A DNA stretch of 64,000 nt from Rhodospirillaceae bacterium (GTDB lineage Bacteria > Pseudomonadota > Alphaproteobacteria > GCA-2721365), in assembly GCA_002721365.1 (NCBI GenBank), contig PBKC01000098.1, positions 8,993 through 72,992 on the forward strand, given 5' to 3'. Shown one piece after another: positions 3,484 to 22,788 of this stretch (position 1 is its first letter; the number at the start of each line of letters is the position of its first letter). The notes beneath the pieces are model-generated. The model was not told the DNA's origin. It saw only the letters and a program-made list of their open reading frames with translations, and did no database searches. The position numbers were made by a program, and so were the translations under genes.

Positions 3484-5128
3484 TATTCACTGGTAGCGAG
3501 ACAACGAATTCCGTGCCGTCCCCGGGGCGCGTGGCAAAGGTAAGCCGTCCGCCATGGGCTTCGACGATCGAACGGCTGAGCGACAAACCGATGCCCATGC
3601 CCCCTGACTTGGTGGTCACGAAGGGTTGAAACAACTTCTTGGCGATATCCTTGGGAATGCCGGGGCCGGTGTCGGCGACCGCGATCTCGACCATGTGGTC
3701 CGCGCCGCGCCGGGTTTCGACCAGGACCCGGCCGTTCGCCATTCCCGATACCGCATCGAAGGCATTGCGGATGACGTTGAGCAGAACCTGCTGGATCTGT
3801 ACCCGGTCGGCGTCGACCGGGGGCAGGTCGGGCGTCAGGCTGAGGTCGGTCTCGATCCCCCGATCACTGGCGCCGGCGAACATCAGCGTGGCGGCGTCGC
3901 GAACCAGGGCGTTGATGTCCTGGGGCGCCCTGATGGTGTCGGTTGCCGTCGCTAGCGACCGGATGCGTTCGATGATGTCGATGGCATGCCTCGCCTGCTC
4001 CAGGGCTTTTCTGCCCAGGTCTTTCGCCATCGTCAGGTCGTCCGCTTCCAGAACCGTGCCGCAGACCTCCATGTAGGACCCGATCGCCGTAAGCGGTTGG
4101 GTCAGCTCATGGGCGATGCCCGTGGTCAGCTCGCCCAGTTCCGCGAGGCGGATCGCGCGGTGCAGCTCGGTCTGCGACCGTTGCAGTTCGGCCGTTCGCT
4201 CCGACACCCGTCGTTCAAGGTTGCGCCGGCTGTCGATAAGGCTTTGTTCGAGCGCCTTCTGTTTGGAAATGTCCCGAATGGCGGCGATCGTCACGAACTC
4301 ATGGTCGAAATAGGCGGGCGACAGCTTGACGTCGATCGGGAATTCCCGACCGTCCTTCGCACGGCCAAAGAGTGCCAGGCCTTCGCCCATCGAGCGCGTC
4401 TTCGGCGTTGCGAAGAACCGCTTCACGTTGTCCTTGTGCTTCTCCCGAAAACGTTCGGGCATCAGAATTTCGACGGGGCGGCCGAGGACCTCGTCCGACT
4501 GGTAGCCGAACAGCCGTAGCAGTTCACTGTTTGCTCTGTTGATCCGGCCGTCCACATCGACGACCGCGGTCGGGTCGGGTGCGGCTTCGAGCAGGCTGCG
4601 GAGCTCGTCCAGGGCTTCGCGCGGCCGCGTCGAGTCGATGAAGGTGGCGACGACGCCGGCTACCGCGCCGTCGTCCGTACGAAACGGCATGATGCGCCGG
4701 ACGTACCATCGGCCGTTGGCCGCGTGGACTTCCTCCTCCATGATCCGGCTGTTCAGCAGCACGGCATAGGCGTCGTCCAGGAAACGGTCGTCTTCGAACT
4801 TGCGGACGAAATGGCCGATCGGACGGCCGATATCGTCGGGGACCAGCTCGATCAGCATTTCGATCGTCGGCGTGAACCATTTGATGTCGAGGTTCGCGTC
4901 GAGTACCAGGGTCGGAATCTCGATGCTGTTCAGCAGGTTGTTGAGATCATGCCGCGCGCCGTCCAGCTCGGTCACCTTGTGCTCGAGCTGAGCATTGACG
5001 GTCGTGAGTTCCTCGTTGCGAGACTGAAGCTCCTCGCGCGATGATTCGAGTTCCCGGAGCCGTTCCCAGTTGGACTCGCTGGCTTCGACGGGGGACGAGG
5101 CCGCCCTCTTGTCGTCGCGGAAGTTCAC
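3470..5128 (-). CDS. PAS-domain sensor histidine kinase (N-terminally truncated relative to CheB/CheR-PAS-kinase hybrids)
   Basis: 552 aa. It has an N-terminal EELQSRNEELTTVNAQLE heptad segment, two PAS-like regions, the HisKA H-box GIAHELTQPL and HATPase_c motifs (NLLLNVIRNAFDA, DTGPGI, GMGIGLSLSRSIVEAHGG). The only available start is GTG at 5128. Confidence 0.85.
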   Translation of the reverse strand: MNFRDDKRAASSPVEASESNWERLRELESSREELQSRNEELTTVNAQLEHKVTELDGARHDLNNLLNSIEIPTLVLDANLDIKWFTPTIEMLIELVPDDIGRPIGHFVRKFEDDRFLDDAYAVLLNSRIMEEEVHAANGRWYVRRIMPFRTDDGAVAGVVATFIDSTRPREALDELRSLLEAAPDPTAVVDVDGRINRANSELLRLFGYQSDEVLGRPVEILMPERFREKHKDNVKRFFATPKTRSMGEGLALFGRAKDGREFPIDVKLSPAYFDHEFVTIAAIRDISKQKALEQSLIDSRRNLERRVSERTAELQRSQTELHRAIRLAELGELTTGIAHELTQPLTAIGSYMEVCGTVLEADDLTMAKDLGRKALEQARHAIDIIERIRSLATATDTIRAPQDINALVRDAATLMFAGASDRGIETDLSLTPDLPPVDADRVQIQQVLLNVIRNAFDAVSGMANGRVLVETRRGADHMVEIAVADTGPGIPKDIAKKLFQPFVTTKSGGMGIGLSLSRSIVEAHGGRLTFATRPGDGTEFVVSLPVNNEEA

Positions 5129-5358
5129 CAGTAGAGGTCGCCGAAACCGGAATGGGGTAATGGCGGTGCCGCGGTAACGATGACGGCGCGATCGACGATG
5201 AAGGCGATATCGCTATCAGCCGGCGTCGACTCAAAGAATCGCTTCAACCCCGCCAGACTGCCGGCGGACGCTCCGATACCGACTATCGGGAATGTCGTCC
5301 GATCCTCGGCGGTGGCGCCTGGGTCGGCGTTGGAAGGATCACCGGTCAAGGCTGCCAA
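5125..5358 (-). pseudogene. remnant of a CheB-type methylesterase domain N-terminus (stub of a CheB/CheR hybrid kinase)
   Basis: 77-aa ORF reading TTFPIVGIGASAGSLAGLKRFFESTPADSDIAFIV, then non-homologous sequence. Its stop lies in TGGTGA, which overlaps the GTG start of the kinase in another frame. Confidence 0.5.
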
Positions 5359-5722
5359 AAAAGCTGGAGAGGGAGAGGGTCAAAAATCAAGCAAACGCGC
5401 CTTTTCGACGTTCATTCTTCCATACATCAAACAGTGTGAAGCGAAAACGCCTTTCCGAACAGTCCCTCTGCCAAAAAGGCACTGAGTCCGTCGAAATGTT
5501 TTTCGAGACGTCAAAAAGTTAGGCGGGAAATATCCACTCCTATTCAATAGGTATTTTAACCCATTTCGCCGCTGCAATCACTGTTTACATCCTGAAGGGA
5601 TGGAACAAACCCGATTGAAGCGGGGGGCGTGGATGGGATCCGCCTCGAGAACAAGCGCGTTTGATCAGTTGGAACCGGTTTCTTCGAGCGAAGGACTGGG
5701 CCGCGCATGTGCGCCACGGCGG

Positions 5723-6490
5723 ATGACCTCAGCCCAAACGGGCATGCCTGCCGTGTCCGACGCATCGTGTTCCGGATGCCCGGCCGGCGATCGGTCTTTT
5801 TGTCGTGCGCTCCATGGCCAACAATTTGACGATCTGGAAAAAGCGCGCAGGAGCTGTGTGCTCCACTCAGGCGAGAACCTCTTCTGGGAAGGAGAGCGCT
5901 TCGACTCGTTTTGCACCGTTCTCGACGGGTGGCTCTTCTCCTATCGGCTGTTCGGCGACGGTCGGAGGCAAATTCTGAACCTGCTGTTCCCGGGCGATGT
6001 CGTGGGGAGCTGGATCGGCGAGGCGGTCGCCCATTGCTCCGTTCAGGCGCTCACGCCGTCAAAGCTTTGCGTGCTTCCCCAGCTGTCGCAAATGGATCTC
6101 GCAACGCGGTTTCCGGAACTGGCGATCCGCTATGGGGAGACAATCCACAATCAACTGGTCCGCAGCGAGTGCCGCGTGGCGAGCCTTGGGCGGCAGTCGG
6201 CACGTCAGCGTATCGCGCATTTCATTCTCGACCTTTGCTGCCGGCTCAACGTCTCGCATGGGAAACCTCTGCAGGCTGCTATTCCCATGCCCCTGACCCA
6301 GGAGGATATCGCCGATTTCCTCGGACTCACCAACGTGACCGTCTGCCGCATCCTCGGAGACTTTCGCACGGAGAATCTGATCCGAATTGCCGGCCACGAA
6401 CTGCAGGTCCGGGATCCGGAGCAACTCGCGGAAATCTGCGAATACGATTGGCTGGAATGTTCCTCCGCATCAGCGGAGGCATGGATCTAG
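5723..6490 (+). CDS. Crp/Fnr-family transcriptional regulator with FNR-like cysteine cluster
   Basis: The ORF is open from 5600. ATG 5723 gives a typical 255-aa Crp/Fnr length. It has an N-terminal CSGCPAGDRSFC, a cNMP-binding-like beta-roll (LFWEGERFDSFCTVLDGWLFSY...GRRQILNLLFPGDVVG) and a C-terminal HTH (QEDIADFLGLTNVTVCRILGDFR). Confidence 0.85.
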   Translation: MTSAQTGMPAVSDASCSGCPAGDRSFCRALHGQQFDDLEKARRSCVLHSGENLFWEGERFDSFCTVLDGWLFSYRLFGDGRRQILNLLFPGDVVGSWIGEAVAHCSVQALTPSKLCVLPQLSQMDLATRFPELAIRYGETIHNQLVRSECRVASLGRQSARQRIAHFILDLCCRLNVSHGKPLQAAIPMPLTQEDIADFLGLTNVTVCRILGDFRTENLIRIAGHELQVRDPEQLAEICEYDWLECSSASAEAWI

Positions 6491-6595
6491 CGCGTCCGTT
6501 CCGCCACTTGGCCGAAGGCATTTCGGCAATCGCAAGACATCGGGAACGGGGATTCCACGCCTCTAGACGGCGCAGAACCAGGAACGAAGTTCGGT

Positions 6596-6637
6596 GCGAT
6601 CCGCGATCCGCGATCCGCGATCCGCGATCCGCGGTCC
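6596..6637. repeat. heptanucleotide tandem repeat (GCGATCC)x5 plus one degenerate copy (GCGGTCC)
   Basis: Read directly: gcgatcc gcgatcc gcgatcc gcgatcc gcgatcc gcggtcc. It lies in the gap between the convergent 3' ends at 6490 and 6709. Confidence 0.9.
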
Positions 6638-6708
6638 GTCGCCGTCGACCGCGATACCCAGACAGCGAAGCACGACAAGCAGCGACATTTTGCCCTCAGG
6701 TCGATCTC

Positions 6709-7323
6709 TCAGTTCGCTGAAGACGATGCCTCCATCACCTCGAACGAGTCCGCGACCTGGGTCCAGTGATCGGCGCCGTGCTTCTCGGCCAGTCGGCGCT
6801 GGGCCGAATCAAGCGCGTGGGCGCGATCGTCCTCCACGGTGACATAGACCGTCGCCAGCTTGACCGGATGGGTGTGGCCATAGCTGTCCGGGATGTTCTT
6901 GAAGAACGTCACCCCGATCGTCTCGAAGGGGCTCGAGTCCGGACTACAGGGCTCGACGTCTCCCGGCGTGACCATGCCGACCAGGTGCCCGCGGCCATCC
7001 ATTACCGGTAGATGCGTCAATCCGTGCGTCGCCATCAGTTCCGCCGCATTCTCCGTCGTCTCCGTATCGCTGCAGGAAAGCAGCGGCGCGGACTGGATAT
7101 CCCTCACCGAGGCATGGTCGGGCGAAAGGCCTTCCGCGGTCGCCCGCCACAGCAGGTCGTGCTCGGTCAGCATGCCGGTCAGCCGCTCGCCGTCGGCGAC
7201 CAGCAGGCAGGAAAGGTGATCGTGGCGCATGCGGCGTGCGGCCGCCGCGACCGACATGTCCGCCGGAATGGTCGGGACGGGAGGTCCCATGACATCGCGT
7301 ACCAGCATCGCCACTCCTTTCAC
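6709..7323 (-). CDS. CBS-domain pair protein with uncharacterised C-terminal domain
   Basis: 204 aa. Two CBS-like units are visible (VRDVMGPPVPTIPADMSVAAAARRM...LLVADGERLTGMLTEHDLL and VRDIQSAPLLSCSDTETTENAAELM...HLPVMDGRGHLVGMVTPGDV), followed by about 70 aa of unassigned sequence. Confidence 0.85.
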   Translation of the reverse strand: MKGVAMLVRDVMGPPVPTIPADMSVAAAARRMRHDHLSCLLVADGERLTGMLTEHDLLWRATAEGLSPDHASVRDIQSAPLLSCSDTETTENAAELMATHGLTHLPVMDGRGHLVGMVTPGDVEPCSPDSSPFETIGVTFFKNIPDSYGHTHPVKLATVYVTVEDDRAHALDSAQRRLAEKHGADHWTQVADSFEVMEASSSAN

Positions 7324-7341
7324 GTCTACAGGCCGGTCAGC

Positions 7342-7575
7342 TCAGGATTCAGCCAACTCCGCGCTCTGGTCGATCGTCCATCCGATCACCCGGCTCGGTC
7401 CGTGTGCGGTCAGCAGGCCCGGTTGGGAAACGACCCGCTTGACGCTGTCGAGACGGGGCACCAGCGAAGCCGCTTCTTCAGCGTGGTCGGCCAGCACTAG
7501 CCATACGCGATCGCCCTGAAATCCATCGTCGCTCGCGGCGCCCGTCACCTCGAACAGCTTCTTCAATGCGACCAT
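7342..7575 (-). CDS. hypothetical 77-aa protein between the ECF sigma and CBS genes
   Basis: ATG at 7575 (MVALKKLFEVTG...) lies 8 nt after the sigma gene stop. The longer 238-aa ORF in the track overlaps the sigma gene and is Arg/Pro-rich upstream of this Met. I recognised no family. Confidence 0.4.
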   Translation of the reverse strand: MVALKKLFEVTGAASDDGFQGDRVWLVLADHAEEAASLVPRLDSVKRVVSQPGLLTAHGPSRVIGWTIDQSAELAES

Positions 7576-7583
7576 CGTGCGTC

Positions 7584-8075
7584 TCAGCGCTGGGTGTCCA
7601 TCAGCGTTCGAAGCTTCCGCCGGGCGCGGGAAATCCGGGACCTGACGTTGCCTGACGATGTTCCCAAGGCCGAGGCGACGGCGGCGTTGGAGAACCCTGT
7701 CGTCGCGTAGGCTCGGATGATCTGGCGGTCTGACGGAGGCAGGGCGCGGATCATGTCGTCGATCTCGGCCAGGAGATCGAAGTCCGGGGCCCGATGGCGG
7801 TGTCCCGCCATCTCCGATTGCATCTCCGAAAGCAGGCGGATTCGACTGCGCTCCCGGCGGCAGTCGTTGGCGAACTGGTTCCGGAGAATGGTCAGCAACC
7901 ACGCCCGGAGATTGGTGCCGGGCTGGTATAGATGCGACTTTCGCAGTGCGCGTTCGACGCTGTCCTGAACCAGTTCGGCCGCCCCCTGCCGGTTCCGGAC
8001 CAGCCGCATTGCCGCTCGTTGCAGATCGGGAATGAGGGCCACGATACCGTCCCGGCACTCGTCACTGGGCGTCAT
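7584..8075 (-). CDS. ECF-type RNA polymerase sigma-70 family factor
   Basis: The region 2 motif is AAELVQDSVERAL...NLRAWLLTILRNQFAND and region 4 is SDRQII...GFSNAAVASALGTSSGNVRSRISRARRKL. I prefer ATG at 8075, preceded by GGAGG about 8 nt upstream, over the track start at 8156, which lies in low-GC sequence. Confidence 0.85.
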   Translation of the reverse strand: MTPSDECRDGIVALIPDLQRAAMRLVRNRQGAAELVQDSVERALRKSHLYQPGTNLRAWLLTILRNQFANDCRRERSRIRLLSEMQSEMAGHRHRAPDFDLLAEIDDMIRALPPSDRQIIRAYATTGFSNAAVASALGTSSGNVRSRISRARRKLRTLMDTQR

Positions 8076-8540
8076 TATCCCTGCCTCCGAAAGCAAGCTC
8101 GCAGTCTCCTCATGAAAAGACCAAGATCGGTTCCCTTCCTTAATCTGGATTAACATGTACTTTCATAAATAATAGTGACAGATCTCTCCTATTCTTTTGT
8201 AGTATATTTTGCCTATTTATCGTCAAAATTGGCATCATTTTGACTCAATCTGCATGGCGGAAGGGGCGGTGATATGGCGGCGGATGATGGCGAAAGCTCT
8301 GGGAAGGGCAGACGGTCGGGTGTCATGACCCGCATTGACAAAGTCCTTGCAGTCGGCGAGTCAGGGAAGTAAATCCGGTCGGCTACTTGTGCGGGATCGA
8401 AGTGGCCCGCAAAGCTCGTGGTCCGGGAAACCCGATTTGTCGAGGTTTAACCGAAGACGTTAAATCCCGGTGAGAGGCCGCCGGAATCGAAGGGGCAAAG
8501 ATACGGACCGCCGTCCGGCTCTGTCTCGGGGCCGGCCAAT

Positions 8541-8753
8541 CTAACGGGACGGTCCGCCGTTCTGGCTCTTCAGCGTCAGATACATCAGGACGAGATACAC
8601 CCCGGGAACCAGAACCAGCACCATGAACTCGGGAAAAGCCGGCGCAGGGCAATTCGTCGCGAACATTCGGTAGCCAATAAAGATGTCGACAAGGGCAATG
8701 ATCGCGATGCCGATGAACCACGGCATCAGGAGGATCCTCTTCCCGCTGCTCAT
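8541..8753 (-). CDS. possible small two-TM membrane protein
   Basis: 70 aa with two hydrophobic stretches (LLMPWFIGIAIIALVDIFIGY and FMVLVLVPGVYLVLMYL). I recognised no homology, so this is a weak call. Confidence 0.3.
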   Translation of the reverse strand: MSSGKRILLMPWFIGIAIIALVDIFIGYRMFATNCPAPAFPEFMVLVLVPGVYLVLMYLTLKSQNGGPSR

Positions 8754-9105
8754 GCTCTTCTCCTTCCCTGAGATCGAGAATGGTTAAGCTCTAACGACGA
8801 TCTACCATCGCGCGATCTGCTCCAGTGGGCGATGAAGCCGTGATGGGACCGGGCGGCGATCCGCGCACGTCTGTGTTGATTTGTATCGTGGCGGTTTCGT
8901 CCGCGATTTAACTCAGATGAAACCGATCTCAAAAGTTGGCAGGTTTTTGACGGAATGGGCCAGCTAAGCGGTCTTCCGGGGCGCTCCAGCACTTCGATGC
9001 TGCTCTGCGCTGCCGCTTGCGCGCCGTCTCCCTCATTGCTCTGGATTAAGGCGGCCCGGCGGGGCCCGATGCCACAGTCATCGAGTCTCCGGGGAAGGTC
9101 TCGTC

Positions 9106-9690
9106 ATGCAGTTGCCGATCCAGATCACCTACCGCGATTTCCAGCCGGCGGCGGCGGTGGATGCGCTGATCCGCGAAAAGGCGGCCGAACTCGACCGTTA
9201 TCACCACCGAATCATGGGCTGCCGCGTGGTCGTCGAGACTCACCACCATCACCAGCGCAAAGGCCGCCTCTACCATCTACGAATCGACCTGACCGTGCCG
9301 GGGGCGGAAATCGTCGTCGGCCGCGAGCCCGGCGCCCGCCACGCCCATGAAGACATCGGCGTGGCGATCCGCGATGCGTTCGATGCGGCCCGCCGACAGC
9401 TCGAAGACCACGCCCGAAAGGCGCGCGGCGATACCAAGACTCACGCCGTTCCCAGCCATGGCCATGTCAGTCAGCTGATCGCCGAAAACGATTACGGCTT
9501 CATCGAAACGCCGGATGGCAGCGAGGTCTACTTCCACCGCAACAGCGTCGGGGGGCCGGGCTTCGATGCATTGTGGCTCGGAGCGGAGGTCCGTTTCGAC
9601 CTCGTCGAAGGGGAAGGCGAGAAGGGGCCGCAAGCGAGTGTCGTCGTTCCTTCCGGCAAGCATCACCTGCCGCCGAAGGAGACTGCCTGA
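9106..9690 (+). CDS. HPF/RaiA-family ribosome-associated protein fused to a C-terminal cold-shock (CSD) domain
   Basis: 194 aa. The N-terminal half follows the RaiA/HPF pattern ([12 protein letters not shown]...[22 protein letters not shown]...[15 protein letters not shown]...[24 protein letters not shown]). The C-terminal half is CSD-like ([30 protein letters not shown]...[17 protein letters not shown]). Confidence 0.8.
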
Positions 9691-9739
9691 GCATCGGTCG
9701 GCCGGACGATACGTCGCAGCGAACCGCAGGGAGGGCGGG

Positions 9740-11506
9740 ATGCCGTTCGAGACGATCACCAAGCACCCGGAACGTTTTCCGGTCGCGCCCAATCTCGCCG
9801 ATTACGAGGCCGCCCGTGCCGACTTCGACTGGGATGCCGCCCGCGCTGCGCTGAGCGGTCTTCCCGGCGGCCAGGGTCTCAACATCGCTTATGAAGCGGT
9901 GGACCGCCATGTCGCGGCGGGCCGCGGCGACCGCCGGGCCATCCGCCATATCGACCGCCATGGCGGCATCACCGATCTCAGCTTCTCCGATCTCGCGCGC
10001 GAGAGCGCCCGGTTCGCCAACGTCCTCGGCGGTCTCGGGATCGAGAGGGGGGAGCGGGTGTTCGCCCTTTCCGGGCGCGTCCCGGCACTCTACGCCGCCG
10101 CGCTCGGGACCTTGAAGGCCGGTGCAGTCTTCTGCCCTCTGTTCTCGGCCTTCGGGCCGGAGCCGATCGCCGCTCGTCTGGAGATCGGCTCCGGCCGTGT
10201 GCTCGTCACCTCCCGCATCCTCTACCGGCGAAAGGTCGCCGATCTGTGCGCGCGGCTGCCGGCGCTGGACTATGTGTTGCTGACCGATGGCGGCCCCGAG
10301 GACGAGGGTGACGGCGTGCTCGCTTTGCCGCGTCTGATGGCGGACGTATCCGACTCCTTCACCATCGCGCCGACCGCCCCGGAGGACATGGCGCTGCTCC
10401 ACTTCACCAGCGGCACGACGGGAAAGCCCAAGGGGGCCATCCATGTCCACCAGGCCGTGGTGATGCACGCCATGACCGGCCGGATGGCGCTCGACCTCCA
10501 TGACGGCGACGTCTTCTGGTGTACCGCCGACCCCGGGTGGGTGACCGGCACCTCCTACGGCATCATCTCGCCGCTGGTGAACGGTGTCGGCATGATCGTC
10601 GACGAGGCCGAGTTCGACGCCGATCGCTGGTACGGCATTCTCCAGGACCAGCGGGTGACCGTCTGGTACACGGCGCCGACCGCGATCCGCATGCTGATGG
10701 AGGTCGGCGCCGACGTCGCCAAAGGGTACGACCTGTCGTCGCTTCGCTTCCTGGCCAGCGTCGGCGAGCCCCTGAACCCGGAAGCGGTGGTGTGGGGCGC
10801 CGAGACCTTCGGCATTCCGTTTCACGACAACTGGTGGCAGACCGAAACCGGCGGGATCATGATCGCCAACTATGCGGCGATGCCGGTGAAGCCGGGCTCG
10901 ATGGGCCGGCCGCTGCCCGGCATTGCCGCTGGGATCGTCGAACGGACCGAGGACGGCGGCGCCAGGGAAATCGCGGAGCCGGACACCGAAGGCGAGCTCG
11001 CGCTGCGCGTCGGCTGGCCGTCGATGTTCCGCGGCTACCTGCACGAGGAAGCGCGGTACCGGAAGACCTTCGCCGGTGACTGGTACCTGACCGGTGATCT
11101 CGCGAAGCGCGACGCCGACGGCTATTTCTGGTTCGTCGGCCGGGCCGACGACGTGATCAAGGCCGCGGGCCACCTGATCGGCCCGTTCGAGGTCGAGAGC
11201 GTGCTGATGGAGCATCCGGCGGTGGCCGAGGCGGCGGTGATTGGAAAGCCCGACGATGTCGCCGGAAACGTGATCAAGGCGTTCGTCGCCCTGAAGCAGG
11301 GTTACGAACCGGGCGAGCCGCTGCTGAAAGAGCTGATGGCCCATGCCCGCAAGCGTCTCGGCCCGGCGGTGGCGCCGCGCGAGATCGCATTCCGCGCCAA
11401 CCTGCCGAAGACCCGGAGCGGCAAGATCATGCGCCGTCTGCTCAGGGCGCGGGAGCTGGGACTGCCCGAAGGCGACCTTTCGACCCTCGAAAGCGACGAA
11501 CGATGA
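9740..11506 (+). CDS. acsA: AMP-forming acetyl-CoA synthetase, AcsA type (acyl-CoA/acyl-carrier ligase family)
   Basis: 588 aa from ATG 9740; the track ORF extends upstream to 9515 through Arg-rich sequence. AMP-binding motifs are [47 protein letters not shown] and [11 protein letters not shown]. The C-terminal [10 protein letters not shown] tail resembles Bacillus-type AcsA. Confidence 0.88.
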
Positions 11507-12498
11507 CCGGGACCGACGAGAAGGTTCATCTGACCAGGGAGCACTGCCTCGATCTGCTCCGGCAGATGGTCCGCATCCGGCGTTTCGAGGAGAAATGCGC
11601 CGAGCTCTACAGCGGGCAGAAGATCCGCGGCTTCCTGCACCTCTATATCGGTGAGGAGGCGGTGGCCGCGGGGACCATGCAGGCGTTGAAGCCGGATGAT
11701 GCCGTCGTCGCGACCTATCGCGAGCACGGCCACGCGTTGGCCCGTGGCCTCGCCATGGGGCCGGTCATGGCGGAGATGTACGGAAAGGTGAACGGCGCCA
11801 GCCGCGGCCGTGGCGGGTCGATGCACATCTTCGATCGCGGCAAGCGCTTTCTCGGCGGCAATGCGATCGTCGGCGGCGGCCTGCCGCTGGCGGTGGGCCT
11901 GGCCCTCGCAGACAAGATGCAGGGCAGGGACCGGGTTACCGCCTGCTTCTTCGGCGAAGGTGCGGTCGCGGAAGGCGAGTTCCACGAATCGCTCAATCTC
12001 GCCGCGCTGTGGAAGCTGCCGGTGCTGTTCCTCTGCGAGAACAATCTCTACGCCATGGGCACCGCGCTCGACCGCTCGGAATCCCAGACCGACATCCACC
12101 TCAAGGCGGCGTCCTACAACCTGCCGTCGCGGCAGGTCGACGGCATGGACGTGGTGGCGGTCGAGGGGGCGGCACGCGAGGCTGCGGCCAGCGTGCGTCG
12201 GGGCGCCGGGCCGTTCTTCCTGGAATTCCGCACTTACCGCTTCCGCGCCCATTCGATGTTCGACGCCCAGCTCTACCGCGAAAAGGAAGAGGTCGAGCAG
12301 TGGAAGGAGAACGACCCGATCCCGCGCTTCGCCGATTGGGCCCAACAGGCCGACCTGCTGCACCCGGCCGATAAGGAGGCGATCGAGGCGTCCGTTCAGG
12401 CAGAGCTGGCCGAGGCGGTCGCTTTCGCCGAGGCCGGCGCCTGGGAGCCGGTCGAGGATCTGCAGAAATTCGTGACGATGGACGAGGTGCCGGCATGA
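11503..12498 (+). CDS. 2-oxoacid (pyruvate/acetoin-type) dehydrogenase E1 component, alpha subunit
   Basis: 331 aa. TPP-binding region [19 protein letters not shown]...[41 protein letters not shown], and [12 protein letters not shown] overlap with acsA. Confidence 0.92.
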
Positions 12499-13502
12499 AT
12501 GGCGACGGCACCGCCGCGCCCCGCCTTCGCCTCACCTATCGCGACGCGGTGCGCGAGGCGATCCGCGATGCGCTGACCCGCGATGAGCGCGTGTTCCTGA
12601 TGGGTGAGGACGTCGGGCGCTACGGCGGCTGTTACGCGGTGAGCAAGGGCCTGTTGGCTGAATTCGGCGAGGACCGGATCCGTGACACGCCGCTGTCCGA
12701 ATCGGCCTTCGTTGGCGCCGGCATCGGTGCGGCACTGAATGGCATGCGTCCGATCGTCGAGGTCATGACGGTCAATTTCTCGCTGCTCGCCCTCGACCAG
12801 ATCGTCAACAACGCCGCCACCATTCCGCACATGTCGGGTGGGCAGTTCGCAGTGCCGCTGGTCATCCGCATGGCGACGGGATCGGGGCGCCAGCTCGCCG
12901 CCCAGCACAGCCACAGCCTGGAAGGCTGGTACGCGCATATTCCCGGCCTCAAGATCCTGGCGCCCGCGACGCTCGAGGATGCCCGCGGCATGCTGTGGAC
13001 GGCGATCGAGGATCCCAACCCGGTGCTGATCTTCGAGAACGTCCAGCTTTACGACATGGAGGGCGAGCTGCCCGCCGATGCGGGACCCGTCGACATCACC
13101 CGCGCCGCGATACGCCGGGAGGGCAAGCATGCCAGTGTCGTCACCTTCGGCGGCTCGGTCCCCAAGGCGGTGGCGGCGGCTGAGACCCTGGCCGGAGAGG
13201 GCGTCGACGTCGAGGTGGTCGATCTCCGCTCCCTCCGCCCGCTCGACGACGCGACGATCATGGCATCGGTCGCCAAGACCCATCGCGTGCTGGTCGTGGA
13301 CGAGGGCTGGCGGAGCGGCGGTCTCTCGGCGGAGGTCAGTGCCCGGATCAACGAGCAGGTGTTCTACGAACTCGACGCACCGGTCGCCCGGCTGGCGGGT
13401 GTCGAGGTCCCGATCCCCTATCCCAAGCATCTGGAAGATGCGTCGGTGCCCCAGGCCGACACCATCGCCGCCGCGCTGCGGGAGATGGTCGGCCGGCGAT
13501 GA
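12495..13502 (+). CDS. 2-oxoacid dehydrogenase E1 component, beta subunit
   Basis: 335 aa. Typical transketolase-like pyrimidine-binding and C-terminal domains ([42 protein letters not shown]). ATGA overlap with E1alpha. Confidence 0.92.
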
Positions 13503-14710
13503 GCGCGTTCGTCATGCCCTCTCTCGGCGCGGACATGGAGGCGGGGACGGTTGTCGAGTGGCTGCGGAAGGTCGGCGACACCGTTCACCACGGCGACGTG
13601 ATCGCGGTGGTCGAGACGCATAAGGGCGCGATCGAGGTCGAGGTGTTCGAGGATGGGGTGGTCGAGGAAATTCTGGTTCCGCCGGGCGAGGAGGTTCCGG
13701 TCGGTACCGCCTTGGCGATGATCGGCGACGGCAGCGGCGCCTCGGCTGCCGCCGCGCCGAAAGCCCCCTTACCTGCTGCGGCGCCTCCGATGGCGGGCGA
13801 AGTCCGAAGGCCAGACGTGCTGAAGGTCAAGCCGAAGGCTCCGGTGGCCGCCGAGGAGGGCCGCCGGCGCGTTTCGCCCTATGCGCGGCGGCGCGCCGAA
13901 GCGCTCGGCGTCGACCTTGCGGACGTGAAAGGGACGGGGCCCGGCGGTGTCGTCCAGGCGGTGGACGTCGAGCAGGCGGCGGGCCGAGCCCGTGCGTCGG
14001 GACGGGAAGCACCGGCCGCACCTCCGGGCCGTCGCCGCGGCTTCGACCCTGAAGCCATGCGCCAGGGGATCGCCGCGGCGATGGCGAAGTCGCACCGTGA
14101 GATTCCCCATTACTATCTCGACACCACCATCGACATGCAGGCGGCGATGCACTGGCTGGAGGCCGCCAATGCCGAGCGCCCCGTGGCCCAGCGCCTGCTC
14201 TATGCCACCCTGCTGATCAAGGCGACGGCGCTCGCTCTCCGCAAGGTGCCGGAGTTGAACGGCTTCTGGATCGACGGCGGGGCGCGGCCGGCGGAGCGGG
14301 TCCATATCGGCTGGGCGATCGCCCTCCGTGGCGGTGGGCTGATGGCACCGGCGATCCACGATGCCGACACGATGAGCCTCGATGCGCTGATGGCGGCGAT
14401 GCGCGATCTTGTGGCGCGCGCCCGGTCCGGCGGCATTCGCGGCTCGGAGATGACCGATCCGACGATCACCATCACCAACCTGGGAGAGCGCGGCGCCGAG
14501 GCGGTCCATGGCCTTATCTACCCGCCGCAGCTCGCCCTGGTCGGTTTCGGCCGCTTGGCTCAGGCGCCTCTCGCGATCGATGGCGCTGTCTCCGTCCGCC
14601 CTGTCGTCCGAGCGTCTCTCGCGGGTGATCATCGCGGCAGCGACGGCCATAGCGGCGGGCTGCTGCTGGCGGCGATCGACGCGTTGCTCCAGAAACCGGA
14701 GGGCCTATGA
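13499..14710 (+). CDS. dihydrolipoamide acyltransferase (E2) with lipoyl, subunit-binding and catalytic domains
   Basis: 403 aa. Lipoyl domain ([17 protein letters not shown]...[15 protein letters not shown]), an Ala/Pro linker, a PSBD-like segment ([28 protein letters not shown]) and a catalytic domain ending in [14 protein letters not shown] (DHR.xDG active-site motif). ATGA overlap with E1beta. Confidence 0.9.
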
Positions 14711-14955
14711 CCGAGCAGGAAATTCGCGACGCCGTACTGGAAAGCCTGTCCGGCGTCGCGCCGGAACTGGATCTGAGCGAGGTCGAGGACGACACCGACC
14801 TCCGCAACGATCTCGATCTCGATTCGATGGACTTCCTCAACTTCGTCATTGCCGTCAGCGAGCGGTTGGGTGTCGACGTTCCCGAGGCCGACTACGGCAG
14901 GATGGACACGCTGGCGAAGTGCGTCGAATACCTGCGCGCGGCGCAGGCGAAATAG
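14707..14955 (+). CDS. acyl carrier protein (phosphopantetheine-binding)
   Basis: 82 aa. DLRNDLDLDSMDFLNFVIAVSERLGVDVPEADY matches the ACP helix II region, with the DSM/DSL serine attachment site. ATGA overlap with E2. Confidence 0.8.
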   Translation: MTEQEIRDAVLESLSGVAPELDLSEVEDDTDLRNDLDLDSMDFLNFVIAVSERLGVDVPEADYGRMDTLAKCVEYLRAAQAK

Positions 14956-15087: not shown

Positions 15088-16170
15088 ATGGTCGAAGTCT
15101 ATTTTGCGACGAACCGGCGGCCCAATCGCCAGAACGGACCAACGGATTTCACCTCCGAATTCACGCCGGATATCAACTCCTTCCGGGTCGGGACCGGGAC
15201 CGTCGAGGGGAACAATCTCTTCGAGCAGGACGTGGATGTCCTAGCGGAGCGGGCGACGATCTCTGTCGAGCCGGAGCGCATGAATGCCGAGGATGCGCGG
15301 GCATCCCGTGTGGGAAGCGACGTCGTCTTCTCCCGAATACGCGAGCGTATGAAGGCGGGTGCGGACGCGATCCTGGCGATCCATGGCTACAACTACACCT
15401 TTCGGCAGGCGGTGGCGCGCGCGGCCCAGCTCGGCCAGTGGCTGGCACCCGAGGCATCCGACATGCGGGGGGAGCGGCCGGAGCCGCCGGTCATGCTCCT
15501 GTTCTCATGGCCGTCGCGCGGGGAAGGTGTGACCCCGAGACTCTATGACGATGAGCGGGCTCGCGCCCGGGCGTCTGGGGAGGCGCTGGGGCGGGCCATC
15601 TTGAAGGCGACGGACTTCCTCCGTGCGATCAAGCGGGAAGACCGCTGCGACGGGTCCATTCACCTGCTGGCGCACAGCATGGGCAATTGGGCGCTGCGCG
15701 GGGCGGTCCAGTACATGAAGACCTTCGTCGGCGAGAACATCCCGCCCTTGTTCGACGAGGTGATTCTGATCGCCGCCGACGAGGACGACGATACCCTGGG
15801 GCAAGGCTATAAGCTGGCGCCCCTTCTTCGGGGAAGCCGCCGGGTTACCGTCTACTACAACCATCAGGACTGGGCGCTGAAGGCCAGCGACTGGGCCATG
15901 GGCAATCCAGATCGTCTGGGACGGTCGGGGCCGAAAGGTGCCGCTGGGGTGCCGGTAAAGGTGGAGCCGGTGAACGTCTCCCGGAAAATCCTGTGGGATG
16001 CCCCGGCGGGCGAGAAGTGGCAGGAAGACGACACCGGTCACCAGTACTACCGAAACAATCCGCGTGTGCGGCTGGACCTTCTGGACGTTCTGGACGGCGT
16101 GGATGCCCGGTTGATCGCGGGGCGACAGCCGGCGGAGGACGGGGGCGGGTTCGTCCTCGTGGACCGGTAG
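15088..16170 (+). CDS. alpha/beta hydrolase, DUF900-like (PF05990-type), no signal peptide
   Basis: 360 aa. N-terminal VYFATNRRP, then LLFSWPSRG, the nucleophile elbow HLLAHSMGNW and later IAADEDDD. The pattern fits the uncharacterised DUF900 esterase-like family as I recall it. Confidence 0.72.
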   Translation: MVEVYFATNRRPNRQNGPTDFTSEFTPDINSFRVGTGTVEGNNLFEQDVDVLAERATISVEPERMNAEDARASRVGSDVVFSRIRERMKAGADAILAIHGYNYTFRQAVARAAQLGQWLAPEASDMRGERPEPPVMLLFSWPSRGEGVTPRLYDDERARARASGEALGRAILKATDFLRAIKREDRCDGSIHLLAHSMGNWALRGAVQYMKTFVGENIPPLFDEVILIAADEDDDTLGQGYKLAPLLRGSRRVTVYYNHQDWALKASDWAMGNPDRLGRSGPKGAAGVPVKVEPVNVSRKILWDAPAGEKWQEDDTGHQYYRNNPRVRLDLLDVLDGVDARLIAGRQPAEDGGGFVLVDR

Positions 16171-18240: not shown

Positions 18241-19221
18241 ATGACTGTCGACGAATCACCGGCAAGCATCATCAATATCGACCTGACCGCCGTCGTCGTG
18301 ATGGTGGCGGACGGGGAGCCCTACGTCCTTGTCCTTCGCGATTCCGGCGGCGGCTTCGACGCCTTGCCGTTCGGACCTCTGCAGAAGGACCACGGAACGC
18401 TTCAGGCCGGAATGCGGAGCTGGGTGGAGCGGCGGACCCAGCATCGTCTCGGCTATATCGAGCAGCTTTACACTTTCGGCGACAGGCCCCCTTGGCCCAA
18501 AGGGCTCGATGCCGGTACCGGCGGCCGGACGCTGTCGCTTGCCTATCTCGCACTCGTCCAGGAAGCGCATCCGTCCTTCGTTGGCCATGCCGCCTGGCGC
18601 TCCTGGTACGATTACTTTCCCCTGGAAGACTGGCGCGAAGGCACGCCGGCGGTCCGCGAACCGTTGCTGGCGCATCTCGAAGGTTGGAGCGCCGCCGCCG
18701 GGCCGCGCGGCCGGACGGCGCGGGCCGAGAGGATCGGCCTGACGTTCGGCCTGTCGGAGCGGGCGTGGGACGACGAACGGGCGCTCGAGCGCTACGAGCT
18801 GCTCTACGAGGCGAAGCTCGTGCCCGAAGCACGGTCGGATGCGGGGGAGGCGACCGCCGCCGATATCGAGGCCCTCGCCGGGCGGCCGATGATCCAGGAC
18901 CATCGGCGCATCGTGGCGACCGCCATCAGCCGTTTGCGCGGCAAGATCAAGTACCGGCCGGTGCTGTTCGAGCTTCTGCCCGAGAAGTTCACGCTGCTGC
19001 AACTGCAGCGCACCGCAGAGGCGCTGTCCGGTATGCGCCTTCACAAGCAGAATTTCCGCCGTCTCGTCGAGCAGCAGCGGCTGGTCGAGGAAACGGGCGA
19101 GATGGCGACCGACACCGGCGGCCGTCCGGCGAAGCTGATGCGTTTCCGCCGCGAAGTGACGCTGGAGCGTCCCGCGCCCGGCGTTCGGGTTACGGCGACC
19201 CGCCGCGCAGGATACCCTTGA
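18241..19221 (+). CDS. nadQ: Nudix-like transcriptional regulator of NAD synthesis (NadQ/NrtR type)
   Basis: 326 aa. The N-terminal Nudix-fold-like domain has no intact Nudix box. The C-terminal winged-helix segment is FTLLQLQRTAEALSGMRLHKQNFRRLVEQQRLVEETGE...GGRPAKLMRF. The gene sits immediately upstream of nadABC, with palindromes in the leader. Confidence 0.78.
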   Translation: MTVDESPASIINIDLTAVVVMVADGEPYVLVLRDSGGGFDALPFGPLQKDHGTLQAGMRSWVERRTQHRLGYIEQLYTFGDRPPWPKGLDAGTGGRTLSLAYLALVQEAHPSFVGHAAWRSWYDYFPLEDWREGTPAVREPLLAHLEGWSAAAGPRGRTARAERIGLTFGLSERAWDDERALERYELLYEAKLVPEARSDAGEATAADIEALAGRPMIQDHRRIVATAISRLRGKIKYRPVLFELLPEKFTLLQLQRTAEALSGMRLHKQNFRRLVEQQRLVEETGEMATDTGGRPAKLMRFRREVTLERPAPGVRVTATRRAGYP

Positions 19222-19241
19222 TTCCCGCACGACCCTTCATA

Positions 19242-19258
19242 TACTCAATCTGAGCATA
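19242..19258 (+). promoter_or_regulatory. putative NadQ operator 1 (ATACTCA-ATC-TGAGCAT)
   Basis: 7-3-7 inverted repeat with one mismatch. It shares the extended sequence CTCA-N3-TGAGCATAAGG with site 2. Confidence 0.55.
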
Positions 19259-19298
19259 AGGGGTTCGGCAGTCGGGCCTCTCTTTTTTGACCGTGAAA

Positions 19299-19315
19299 TG
19301 CTCATTTTGAGCATA
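19299..19315 (+). promoter_or_regulatory. putative NadQ operator 2 (ATGCTCA-TTT-TGAGCAT)
   Basis: Perfect 7-3-7 palindrome, directly abutting the nadA ribosome-binding site AAGGAGG and 12 nt upstream of ATG 19327. Confidence 0.6.
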
Positions 19316-19326
19316 AGGAGGCTCGA

Positions 19327-20346
19327 ATGAATACGGGCGATCTCTCCCATGCCGAAGTGCTGCCGTACACACCAGCCGTGGCGGCGCGGACGGCCGACGT
19401 GTTCGAGCGCATGAAACGGGTGGTGCCGGCGATCGAATGGCCGATCCATGCCCCGGAGATCGATGCGATCCGGTCGCTCAAGGAGAAGCGCAACGCGATC
19501 GTTCTCGCCCACAACTACCAGACGCCCGAGATATTCCACGGCGTGGCCGACATCGTCGGCGACTCGCTCGCCCTGGCGCGGCGGGCGACCGAGACCGATG
19601 CCGACGTGATCGTTCTTGCCGGCGTCCACTTCATGGCCGAGACCGCCAAGCTGGTGAACCCGGAGAAGATCGTTCTGATCCCGGACGACGATGCCGGCTG
19701 CTCGCTCGCGTCCTCGATCACCGGCGCCGACGTGCGGCTGCTGCGCGAGACCTATCCCGGCGTCCCGGTGGTGACCTATGTGAATACTTCCGCCGAGGTG
19801 AAGGCCGAGGCCGACATCTGCTGCACCTCGGGCAACGCGGTGAAGGTGGTGGAGTCGCTTGGCGTACCCCGCGTCATCTTCATTCCCGATGCTTATCTGG
19901 CCAACTACGTCGCCCGCCAGACCGACGTCGAGATCATCGCCTGGCACGGGCGCTGCGAGGTCCACGAGCGCTTCACCGGCGCCGAGATCGAGGCCTACCG
20001 CAAGGACTTTCCCGGCCTCGCGGTCATCGCCCATCCCGAATGCCCGCCGGACGTGCTGGATGTCGCCGACTACGTCGGCTCGACCGCGGCGATGGCCGAC
20101 TTCGTCCGCGACCGCAAGCCGCAGCGCGTGCTGATGGTCACCGAATGCTCGATGAGCGACAACGTCGCCGCCCAGGCGCCCGACGTCGAGTTCGTCCGGC
20201 CGTGCAATCTGTGCCCGCACATGAAGCGGATCACTCTGACCAAGATCCGCCGGGCGCTGGAGACGCTGGAACCACGGGTCGAGCTCGACCCGGCGACGGC
20301 CGAGCGGGCGCGGGTCGCGGTCGAACGCATGCTGGCGGTCGCCTGA
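19327..20346 (+). CDS. nadA: quinolinate synthase
   Basis: 339 aa. [45 protein letters not shown] and VTECSM. Confidence 0.95.
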
Positions 20347-20365
20347 GCGGCGCCGGATCACGGCC

Positions 20366-21928
20366 ATGACACCCGAAGACCGCGTCATCGTCGTCGGCAG
20401 CGGCATCGCCGGACTGGCGACCGCGCTCGAGCTTCGGCCGCTGCCGGTCCTGCTGGTGACCGGCGGCGCGTTGGAGGCACCGGGCTCCACCGTATGGGCG
20501 CAGGGCTGGATCGCCGCCGCCATCGGGGACGACGACGAGCCGGCCCTCCATGCCGCCGATACCCTGGCGGCGGGGGCGGGCCTCAGCGACCGCGATATCG
20601 CGGTGCGGGTCGCTGCTCAGGCGCCCGAACGCATCGCCCGGCTGATCGAATGGGGCGTCCCCTTCGACCGCGATGCCGATGGCGTGCTCGCCCGCGGCAC
20701 CGAGGCCGCCCACTCCCGCGCGCGCATCCTCCATGCCGGCGGCGACCGGTCCGGGGCCGCGATCCTGAAGGCACTGGCCGATGTCGTGCGGGCGACGCCG
20801 TCGATTACGATCATGGAGCACGCGGTCGCCGAAGACCTTCTCGGGACGGGCCGCGTGACGGGCGTTCGCGTGCGGCGCGGTCGGGAGGTTTTCTCCGTTC
20901 ACGGGCGCGCCGTCGTCCTGGCGACCGGGGGTGCGGGGGCGCTCTACGCCGCGACGACCAATCCGCCGTCGAGTTGGGGGGCGGGGCTGGCGATGGCGGC
21001 GCGGGCCGGGGCGGTGATGCGCGACCTCGAATTCGTGCAGTTCCATCCCACGGCGATCGACCTCATGGTCGACCCGCTGCCCCTGGCGAGCGAGGCCATC
21101 CGCGGCGAAGGCGTGCCGCTGATCGACGACCGTGGTGCGCCGGTGATGGCGGGGATTGCCGGCGGCGACCTCGCACCGCGCGACGTGGTCGCCCGCGCCG
21201 TCTTCCAGGCCATCGCCGGCGGCCGGACGGTCCTCCTGGACACGCCCCGGGCGATGGGCGGTCGTTTCGCGAAGCGTTTTCCGGGGATCGACGCGCGCTG
21301 CAAGGCGGCCGGGCTCGTCCCCGCGTCCCTGCCGATTCCGGTCCGGCCGGCGGCGCACTATCACATGGGCGGCATCCGCGTGGACGGCCGCGGCCGCAGC
21401 TCGCTCCCCGGCCTTTGGGCCTGCGGAGAGGTGGCGGCGACCGGGCTCCATGGCGGCAATCGCCTAGCCAGCAATTCCCTGCTCGAGGCAGTGACCTTCT
21501 CCGCGTGGATCGCCGATGACATCAAAGGCGAGGCCGTTCCGGCCTTGGAGCCTGCGGTCGGGCCGCAATCGGCACCGTCGGTTGGCTTGAGCGACGCCGA
21601 CAAGGTCGGCCTGTCGGACCTGCGCCGCCTCATGGAGCGGGACGTCGGCGTGGTGCGGGACGGTGAGGGGCTCGCCCGCGCGGTCGCGACGCTCTCCGGC
21701 CTCGTGCGGCGTTCTGGGACTTCGGAAAGGCTGCGGCGCCAAGCGCAGGTGAGCCTCATGATCGCCCTGGCCGCCCTCCACCGGACGGAAAGCTGCGGCG
21801 CCCATTCCCGGCGCGACGCGCCTCGGGCGCCGTCATCGCCGCCCAGGCATCAGGACATCACCCTTGTCGAGGCCGAAACGGCGGCCGCTTCGTTCGCCGA
21901 GGGAAACAGAGAGGAGACCTGTCTTTGA
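20366..21928 (+). CDS. nadB: L-aspartate oxidase
   Basis: 520 aa. FAD motif VIVVGSGIAGL, FVQFHPTA, HYHMGGI, and GLHGGNRLASNSLLE. Confidence 0.93.
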   Translation: MTPEDRVIVVGSGIAGLATALELRPLPVLLVTGGALEAPGSTVWAQGWIAAAIGDDDEPALHAADTLAAGAGLSDRDIAVRVAAQAPERIARLIEWGVPFDRDADGVLARGTEAAHSRARILHAGGDRSGAAILKALADVVRATPSITIMEHAVAEDLLGTGRVTGVRVRRGREVFSVHGRAVVLATGGAGALYAATTNPPSSWGAGLAMAARAGAVMRDLEFVQFHPTAIDLMVDPLPLASEAIRGEGVPLIDDRGAPVMAGIAGGDLAPRDVVARAVFQAIAGGRTVLLDTPRAMGGRFAKRFPGIDARCKAAGLVPASLPIPVRPAAHYHMGGIRVDGRGRSSLPGLWACGEVAATGLHGGNRLASNSLLEAVTFSAWIADDIKGEAVPALEPAVGPQSAPSVGLSDADKVGLSDLRRLMERDVGVVRDGEGLARAVATLSGLVRRSGTSERLRRQAQVSLMIALAALHRTESCGAHSRRDAPRAPSSPPRHQDITLVEAETAAASFAEGNREETCL

Positions 21929-22788
21929 CCAAGTTTCTGCCGCCCCTTCCCGATCTGCTGATCGAGCCGATCGTGCGCGCCGCGCTGATGGAGGACCTCG
22001 GCCGCGCGGGCGACATCACCACGGCGGCGGTCGTGCCGGAGGATACGACCGTCACGGCGGCGTTTGTCGCGCGCACCAAGGGCACGATCGCAGGTCTGGA
22101 CGTCGCTCGGATGGTCTTTCGTCTGATGGACGCAGCGATCGATTGCCGGAAGGAAGTGGCCGACGGGACTGACGTCGAAGCGGGACAGGTCCTGATGCGG
22201 GTCGCGGGGCGGGCACAGCCGATTCTTTCGGCCGAACGGGTATCGCTCAACCTTCTAGGCAGGCTGTCAGGGATAGCGACGGCGACGGCGGCCCTGGTGG
22301 CCGCGGTCGGATCGCATCCGGCGGGCATCACCTGCACGCGGAAGACGACGCCCGGCCTCCGTGCCCTGGAGAAGTTTGCGGTGCGCGCTGGCGGCGGCGT
22401 CAACCACCGCTTCGGCCTCGACGACGCTGTCCTGATCAAGGACAACCATGTCGCTCTGGCCGGCGGCGTCGGCGTCGCGGTGAGGAGCGCCCGCGCCCGG
22501 GTCGGGCATCTGGTCAAGGTCGAGGTTGAGATCGACAGTCTGGATCAGCTCGACGAGGCGCTGGCGGCGGGACCGGACGCCATCCTTCTCGACAACATGA
22601 CGCCCGACGAGTTGCGGGAAGCGGTCCGCCGGGTCGACGGCCGGGCGACCACCGAAGCCTCCGGCGGCATCACCTTGGCGTCGGTGCCGGCGATCGCCGC
22701 GACCGGGGTCGACCTGATCTCGGCCGGCTGGCTGACCCACAGCGCCCCCAGCCTCGACATCGGGTTGGATATCGACGTTTCCGGCTGA
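21925..22788 (+). CDS. nadC: nicotinate-nucleotide diphosphorylase (carboxylating)
   Basis: 287 aa. AERVSLNLL, TRKTTPGLR, HRFGLDDAVLIKDNH, LLDNM, and SGGI. 4-nt overlap with nadB. Confidence 0.93.
   Translation: MTKFLPPLPDLLIEPIVRAALMEDLGRAGDITTAAVVPEDTTVTAAFVARTKGTIAGLDVARMVFRLMDAAIDCRKEVADGTDVEAGQVLMRVAGRAQPILSAERVSLNLLGRLSGIATATAALVAAVGSHPAGITCTRKTTPGLRALEKFAVRAGGGVNHRFGLDDAVLIKDNHVALAGGVGVAVRSARARVGHLVKVEVEIDSLDQLDEALAAGPDAILLDNMTPDELREAVRRVDGRATTEASGGITLASVPAIAATGVDLISAGWLTHSAPSLDIGLDIDVSG

Follow-up and report, generated by a model that had tools for sequence, protein, structure and literature searches.

The 64,000-nucleotide stretch analyzed here (hereafter, the window; contig PBKC01000098.1 of a Rhodospirillaceae bacterium, positions 8,993 to 72,992) carries a cassette of five overlapping genes, encoding an AMP-forming ligase of the AcsA type, the E1 alpha and E1 beta subunits and the E2 dihydrolipoamide acyltransferase of a pyruvate dehydrogenase (PDH)-type complex, and a dedicated acyl carrier protein (ACP). 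The cassette recurs with the same gene order in many bacteria, and the ACP gene stays behind the E2 gene. We suggest, with a probability of roughly 0.4, that it encodes a mobile, stress-induced module that converts pyruvate to an acetyl thioester and on to acetate via acetyl-S-ACP, with the dihydrolipoamide dehydrogenase (E3) supplied in trans.

Open reading frames (ORFs) and domain scans confirmed the arrangement that had been described in a first-pass annotation of the window, i.e., five coupled genes joined by four ATGA overlaps, in each of which the start ATG shares its TG with the TGA of the previous gene (Table 1). The lipoyl-lysine context (VETHKG), the subunit-binding domain and the catalytic GDHRGSDG motif of E2 were all present as claimed, as were the DSM serine of the ACP (LDLDSMD) and an alpha/beta hydrolase gene 132 nt downstream. 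A GGGAGGG ribosome-binding site precedes the ligase start, the ATG at 9740; the ORF listed from 9515 is artefactual and extends the open frame upstream. Gene callers start E2 at Met6 (13514), giving a 398-aa form, and the start at 13499 is favored because homologues conserve the longer MxEFxMPSLG N-terminus. A scan for promoters and terminators found no site above the shuffled background, and none between the upstream hibernation-factor gene and the cassette.

Table 1 Coordinates of the cassette, its domains and its neighbors in the window. Domains of the upstream neighbors were taken from the Pfam listing of an identical contig (L001).
Feature	Position	Strand	Basis or remark
Crp/Fnr-family regulator	5600-6490	+	Pfam families
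CBS-domain protein	6709-7323	-	Pfam families
S30AE ribosome hibernation factor fused to cold-shock domain, 194 aa	9106-9690	+	Pfam
AMP-forming ligase, AcsA type, 588 aa	9740-11506	+	NF003313
E1 alpha, thiamine-diphosphate dependent, PDH type, 331 aa	11503-12498	+	PF00676 E1_dh, TIGR03182
E1 beta, 335 aa	12495-13502	+	Transket_pyr (PF02779), Transketolase_C (PF02780), NF006667
E2 dihydrolipoamide acyltransferase, 403 aa	13499-14710	+	PF00364 (Biotin_lipoyl), PF02817 (E3_binding), PF00198 (2-oxoacid_dh)
E2 lipoyl domain	residues 4-75		Lys42 at nt 13622-13624
E2 subunit-binding domain	residues 124-158		
E2 catalytic domain	residues 186-402		His378/Asp382
Dedicated ACP, 82 aa	14707-14955	+	PF00550
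ACP phosphopantetheine-attachment Ser40 (predicted)	14824-14826		
DUF900 alpha/beta hydrolase	15088-16170	+	PF05990; neighbor, outside the conserved cassette
Gene product of 278 aa	16221-17054	+	no Pfam or PADLOC match
Gene product of 132 aa	17074-17469	+	no Pfam or PADLOC match
NrtR-like regulator, nadA, nadB-like, nadC-like	18241-22788	+	NadA by domain; the other two nad genes by position and N-terminal sequence
Polysaccharide-type cluster	~22820-53136		sugar epimerase/dehydratase-like, glycosyltransferase-like, nucleotidyltransferase-like and multi-span membrane proteins, from N-terminal sequences

A scan of one genome per species gave 73 related loci, and tblastn with the five window proteins showed the order ligase, E1 alpha, E1 beta, E2 and ACP in essentially all of them. 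Overall, the same gene order was found in ~80 independent loci from more than ten phyla, and judged by record titles these belong to Alpha-, Beta- and Gammaproteobacteria, Desulfobacterota, Actinomycetota, Chloroflexota, Gemmatimonadota, Nitrospinota, Verrucomicrobiota, Acidobacteriota and Candidatus Entotheonella. The 4-nt overlap was kept between E2 and ACP in 55 of 65 loci, between ligase and E1 alpha in 48 of 57, and between E1 alpha and E1 beta in 34 of 46. Given that both the order and the overlaps recur in so many independent loci, the cassette is far beyond what chance would produce. The first-pass annotation had reasoned that the adjacency of E2 and ACP would be accidental if the ACP gene were absent from orthologous clusters; wherever a locus extends far enough downstream, the gene was found behind E2, and 67 of these copies are complete while 3 are truncated by a contig end. 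It remains directly after E2 even where the ligase gene is relocated (L028 and L046) or missing from the locus (L030, L055 and L065).

The flanks of the cassette can be wholly different, for example in a Mesorhizobium genome and on a 2-Mb metagenomic contig that contain the five genes in identical order. A tblastn search of plasmids with the ACP returned 35 records, including those of Burkholderia, Cupriavidus, Ralstonia, Sinorhizobium, Methylocystis, Leisingera, Rhodococcus and Desulfotalea, and in nearly all of the plasmid records listed the match lies beside a gene annotated as "dihydrolipoamide acetyltransferase family protein". The cassette is a horizontally mobile unit whose genes are inherited together, and it is often plasmid-borne. 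Literature searches for the gene combination revealed no paper that describes it, and the cassette is absent from the paper on the low-oxygen (lxa) locus of Burkholderia cenocepacia.

The substrate type was examined using the ligase and the E1 subunits. The ligase has the AMP-binding and AMP-binding_C domains and scored 905 bits against the acetate-coenzyme A (CoA) ligase model NF003313 (cutoff 729). It resembles the Bacillus subtilis-type AcsA in its short form and in its acetylatable lysine motif (SGKIMRR), and it aligned over the full length with the 572-aa AcsA of PDB 9G79 (chain B; E 3e-161); alignments with 9G79 and 2P2F indicated that the glycine of the SGH hinge and the arginine equivalent to R584 are also kept. 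The insertion of Salmonella Acs bearing the CoA residues R191 and R194 is missing from the cassette ligase, and since Bacillus AcsA is also without it, these two residues do not discriminate. The cassette ligase differs from AcsA in being coupled to a PDH-like E1 alpha, in an operon with an ACP. E1 alpha passed the PDH equivalog TIGR03182 (PDH_E1_alph_y; 447.5 bits, cutoff 393.85) and E1 beta scored 404.6 bits against NF006667 (cutoff 321), while transketolase models matched the cassette E1 only weakly. Judged by these profiles, E1 is pyruvate-type and not acetoin-type, and the ligase is an acetate-CoA ligase of the Bacillus AcsA type, so that the cassette chemistry is predicted to be acetyl chemistry.

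The "acetoin-like" substrate of the first-pass annotation is therefore not supported, because E1 alpha passes the PDH equivalog and the AcoC model fits E2 over the lipoyl domain only (NF011457, residues 3-166; 79 bits, cutoff 307). The acetoin dehydrogenase system AcoABC(L) shares the architecture of E1 alpha and beta with a lipoyl-E2, whereas acoL, acoX and acoR genes are absent from the cassette. In 15 cassette loci the two E1 subunits were fused in a protein of ~665-679 aa, including two from Rhodobacterales (Tranquillimonas, L059:4981-6978; Leisingera, L087:6845-8842).

The cassette E2 scored below every NCBIfam E2 equivalog cutoff (best TIGR01349, 216 bits vs 445). The lipoyl lysine does not vary among 63 cassette E2s, in which the subunit-binding domain and the TITxTxLG and DHRxxDG motifs are conserved, and the equivalents of His378 and Asp382 are kept; the residue preceding the lipoyl lysine is H, E or Q, whereas the canonical residue is D. 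Compared with the PDH complex (heterotetrameric E1; PdhA/PdhB/PdhC-Lpd of the mitochondrial, alphaproteobacterial or Gram-positive type), the E1s pass PDH models and E2 has the same parts, with a single lipoyl domain followed by the subunit-binding and DHRxxDG catalytic domains, and with the mitochondrial and Geobacillus E2p as its best solved-structure relatives. The differences are the lack of an E3 gene, the sub-equivalog score of E2, the variable residue before the lysine, a shorter E2 tail, and the ligase and ACP genes built into the operon. Past the conserved proline, the tail is 2-3 residues shorter than in the Geobacillus and fungal E2p, a feature of the sequence that hints at an altered core assembly. 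Some cassette-type E2s (P0058, P0095, P0073 and P0113) have two or three tandem subunit-binding domains, which is unusual for E2. Long E2 homologues were considered as E2-ACP fusions and this was ruled out, as their length is due to extra subunit-binding domains and, in one case, to a frameshift read-through.

The ACP scored 35.7 bits against PF00550 (PP-binding; cutoff 20.8) and fell below all NCBIfam ACP cutoffs (best 41.8 bits vs 70). Its AlphaFold2 model (predicted local distance difference test score 92.9) has four helices (residues 3-17, 40-54, 60-65 and 69-81), with Ser40 opening helix II; on this model the ACP is a canonical four-helix type II carrier with a predicted phosphopantetheine attachment. 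The attachment serine is present in 67 of the 68 ACP copies, and DSMDFLNF and PExDY are invariant in 38 ACP homologues. Helix II (DSMDFLNFVIA) is hydrophobic and invariant within the subfamily, in contrast to AcpP of fatty acid synthesis with its acidic DSLDxVELV recognition helix, and the ACP also fails the AcpP equivalog score. The subfamily is large, as its profile matched 1,324 representatives (E <= 1e-10; clustered at 50% identity) among 1.84 billion cluster representatives. The functional tie between ACP and E2 that had been proposed from the window gains from the conserved adjacency and serine; the lipid or exopolysaccharide destination and the acetoin substrate that were proposed with it do not.

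A sister ACP subfamily (DSMDWLN) was found as fusions on short, partly frameshifted contigs (L081:378-956, L083:758-1600 and L084:648-1454). Their C-terminal region resembles a Pat-like GNAT domain by eye (RYxRF), while Pfam assigns PP-binding only. The contigs that carry the ACP-GNAT fusion genes are 1.2-2 kb long, and the surroundings of these genes have no relation to E1/E2. We counted these GNAT-like fusions in favor of acetyl transfer to the ACP, as they link the ACP with another thioester-using enzyme family.

Strict and loose patterns for the E3 redox-disulfide motif gave no match in the window or in any related locus (~8 kb on each side). The lack of E3 noted for the window by the first-pass annotation thus holds by motif search for all ~80 related loci, and E3 absence is a property of the whole family. 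Given that the subunit-binding domain is retained in E2 and that many copies of the cassette are accessory or lie on plasmids, the simplest reading is that E3 is supplied in trans. A conjugative plasmid of the strict anaerobe Desulfotalea psychrophila encodes a lipoate-protein ligase right after the ACP (L085:10336-11346) and no E3, which indicates that the lipoyl arm is required. A role of the ACP as octanoyl source for lipoylation was set aside, since this lone linked lipoylation gene is of the salvage type, and ligases of this type use free lipoate and not acyl-ACP.

In the model that we favor, E1 would decarboxylate pyruvate and acetylate the lipoyl arm of E2, and E2 would then load the ACP at its phosphopantetheine thiol, instead of or besides free CoA, to give acetyl-S-ACP. 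The ligase would interconvert acetate and the acetyl thioester, and the housekeeping E3 of the host, docked on the E2 subunit-binding domain, would re-oxidize the lipoyl arm. The module would be switched on under low oxygen or other stress, and its net role would be to manage the pyruvate/acetate/acetyl-thioester node in oxygen limitation or dormancy, and not the supply of lipid or polysaccharide. The route from pyruvate via acetyl-lipoyl-E2 to acetyl-S-ACP is the best supported one because of the acetyl chemistry, the ACP welded to E2 with its private recognition helix, and a precedent in QncN/QncL/QncM, in which an acyl group is moved from a lipoyl-E2 to an ACP, as has also been proposed for SclQ1-4 (PMC6335953). 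These systems, which make glycolicacyl-ACP for tetrahydroisoquinoline and scleric acid, likewise combine a thiamine E1, a lipoyl E2 and a dedicated small ACP without E3. As compared by description, they differ in that their C2 unit comes from ketose phosphates and feeds a non-ribosomal peptide line in a biosynthetic cluster (PMC6335953), while the cassette has a PDH-type E1, an AcsA-type ligase and a stress/hypoxia setting. No non-ribosomal peptide synthetase or polyketide synthase genes were found in the flanks of the cassette loci inspected. The consumer of the acyl-ACP would be generic or the ligase itself, because no consumer is conserved outside the cassette.

Several observations weigh against acetyl-S-ACP as the product. 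We infer the acetyl transfer to the ACP from sequence and from analogy, and the cassette E2 retains every feature of a normal CoA-using E2. The CoA site of caged E2 cores faces inward, to the hollow centre of the cage (PMC8421416), a geometry that by analogy would be awkward for a 9-kDa ACP if this E2 assembles beyond the trimer. About half of the ligase residues are identical to those of an authentic CoA-using AcsA, and the key residues are retained, so a cycle on CoA only is equally compatible with it. Co-variation of ACP distance matrices did not single out E2, and the correlations shifted with the sampling of loci and with the crude splitting of fused E1. One carrier (L004:11197-11454) has phenylalanine in place of the attachment serine (DLDFMD), which could reflect an error in the sequence, gene decay or a carrier-independent role. 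With regard to induction, no TTGA-N6-TCAA box was found at 5000-9800 of the window, and a search for sequencing runs returned DNA metagenome runs only and no RNA.

In an alternative that we consider somewhat less likely than the favored model, the cassette is an ordinary second PDH for stress conditions plus an acetyl-CoA synthetase, both working on free CoA with the host E3, and the ACP is structural or regulatory (e.g., an acyl-state sensor, like mitochondrial ACP in respiratory and Fe-S assembly complexes). It is consistent with the ligase and E1 alpha passing the acetate-CoA ligase and PDH cutoffs, with the end-to-end alignment of the ligase to 9G79, with the one to three subunit-binding domains that E2 retains, and with an accessory, often plasmid-borne cassette in genera already equipped with a housekeeping PDH and Lpd. 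The closest solved structures of the ACP, weakly (E 3e-8), are also mitochondrial complex-bound ACPs. However, no LYR-type partner is encoded, and this alternative gives no reason for a serine-bearing ACP with an invariant recognition helix to be fixed to E2 in every locus and phylum, nor for E3 to be missing everywhere, even on the conjugative plasmid that brings its own lipoate ligase.

ANL-family ligases often load stand-alone carrier proteins. The ligase could accordingly act as an acetate:ACP ligase, with E2 using acetyl-ACP in reverse or not at all, which we regard as quite improbable. ACP distances track the ligase (r 0.54-0.65) at least as well as E2 (0.52-0.55), a result that changed with sampling, and the ligase is translationally coupled in most loci (48 of 57, as above). 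On the other hand, displacement or absence of the ligase leaves the ACP next to E2, the ACP never adjoins the ligase, and the ligase residues checked do not depart from those of CoA-using AcsA.

A further variant, which is improbable, is a closed CoA-sparing loop, in which the ligase would run in reverse on the carrier and convert acetyl-S-ACP, AMP and pyrophosphate to acetate, ATP and holo-ACP. The ACP would then shuttle exclusively between these two enzymes encoded in the operon, and the loop would serve survival without growth. An AMP-forming acetyl-CoA synthetase does run in reverse in Syntrophus aciditrophicus, making ATP from acetyl-CoA, AMP and pyrophosphate (PMC4992975), although that enzyme uses free CoA. 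The cassette co-occurs with AMP-linked phosphoenolpyruvate (PEP) synthase-type enzymes, which were found near it in 14 loci, directly upstream of the ligase in four and in the place of the ligase in two; as a neighbor, PEP synthase would add a second AMP-to-ATP step upstream.

The recurrent neighbors of the cassette are stress and low-oxygen genes, and not lipid or polysaccharide genes. They include Hsp20 (12 loci), CBS proteins (10), Usp (at least 10), FixJ/NarL-type regulators (10), P-type ATPases (8), DUF2267 (7) and PfkB kinases (4), and also GroEL, FtsH, BON, J-domain, hibernation factor and Crp/Fnr proteins. In 6 of 58 loci, where about one is expected, a box of the FNR/FixK type (TTGA-N6-TCAA) precedes the ligase by 60-300 nt; all six are proteobacterial. 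Upstream of the cassette, the window encodes a PAS histidine kinase, a Crp/Fnr regulator, a CBS protein, an ECF-type sigma factor and the hibernation-factor/cold-shock fusion, and the Crp/Fnr and CBS families flank the cassette on the Leisingera plasmid as well. The hibernation-factor gene ends 49 nt before the ligase start, a spacing that suggests it may be co-transcribed with the cassette. GNAT or Usp-GNAT genes are nearby in some loci only; on a Rhodococcus plasmid, the gene for a 503-aa fusion of Usp and GNAT lies ~2 kb upstream of the cassette (L080:1588-3099), and its product may be a lysine acetyltransferase with the AcsA-type ligase as target.

This setting argues against the pathway proposed in the first-pass annotation, in which acyl-ACP from a 2-oxoacid or acetoin-like substrate serves lipid or polysaccharide modification, and which we now consider hardly credible. 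The link of ACP and E2 is conserved, and the window does have a polysaccharide cluster at ~22.8-53 kb. Yet no acyltransferase, ketosynthase or other acyl-ACP consumer recurs beside the cassette, whose flanks differ apart from the stress genes, and E1 is PDH-type. The polysaccharide cluster is a separate unit 8 kb away, beyond nadABC, and absent from other loci; the hydrolase, the two unmatched genes, a globin gene, the NrtR-like regulator gene and nadABC lie between it and the cassette. The DUF900 hydrolase is likewise specific to the window, with no homologue in any other cassette locus.

The stress islands in which the cassette lies, together with the absence of E3 from all loci, could also be read as a system independent of E3, in which a lipoyl arm reduced at the expense of pyruvate is a direct source of dithiol reducing power for thiol peroxidases or other stress reductases, with the carrier serving to dock or tether such a partner. 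We consider this very improbable. In one locus the gene directly after the cassette E2, with the usual overlap, encodes the ACP fused to an OsmC-family peroxidase domain (L082:518-1237), and Ohr/OsmC proteins have been described as lipoyl-dependent thiol peroxidases (PMC5384416, PMC5962072). The fusion is found on two short contigs only, however, and no OsmC homologue was found in the other loci; moreover, this reading leaves no role for the phosphopantetheine thiol or the ligase.

If the ACP is the acyl acceptor, the cassette would represent a PDH-type complex of primary or stress metabolism that delivers acetyl to a protein-bound pantetheine and not to CoA. Such a system would be widespread, occurring in more than ten phyla that include strict anaerobes, on conjugative plasmids, and with ~1,300 ACP subfamily representatives. 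It would provide a metabolic function for a recurrent part of hypoxia/dormancy islands (with Hsp20, Usp, CBS, hibernation factor and PEP synthase). A question that follows is how a lipoyl enzyme is recycled without E3 travelling along. Even on a conservative reading, annotation names the five genes piecemeal; the NCBI pipeline calls them acsA, pdhA, "alpha-ketoacid dehydrogenase subunit beta", "dihydrolipoamide acetyltransferase family protein" and "acyl carrier protein", and the ACP is assigned to "fatty acid biosynthetic process", a label that finds no support in its context. Being widespread, mobile, stress-linked and experimentally tractable, the cassette is of real interest.

The PADLOC defence models gave no match. 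NAD salvage and phosphoribosyl pyrophosphate genes (nicotinate phosphoribosyltransferase and ribose-phosphate pyrophosphokinase) were observed near the cassette in several other loci. The polysaccharide cluster shows a marked negative AT skew at 32-40 kb. At 55001-64000 on the plus strand, one frame is open for at least 3,000 codons and runs past the window end, encoding beta-helix-like and GGxGxD calcium-binding (RTX-type) repeats; the minus-strand ORFs in this region look like shadow frames, and the strong GC skew of the last 8 kb is due to this long RTX-type open frame.

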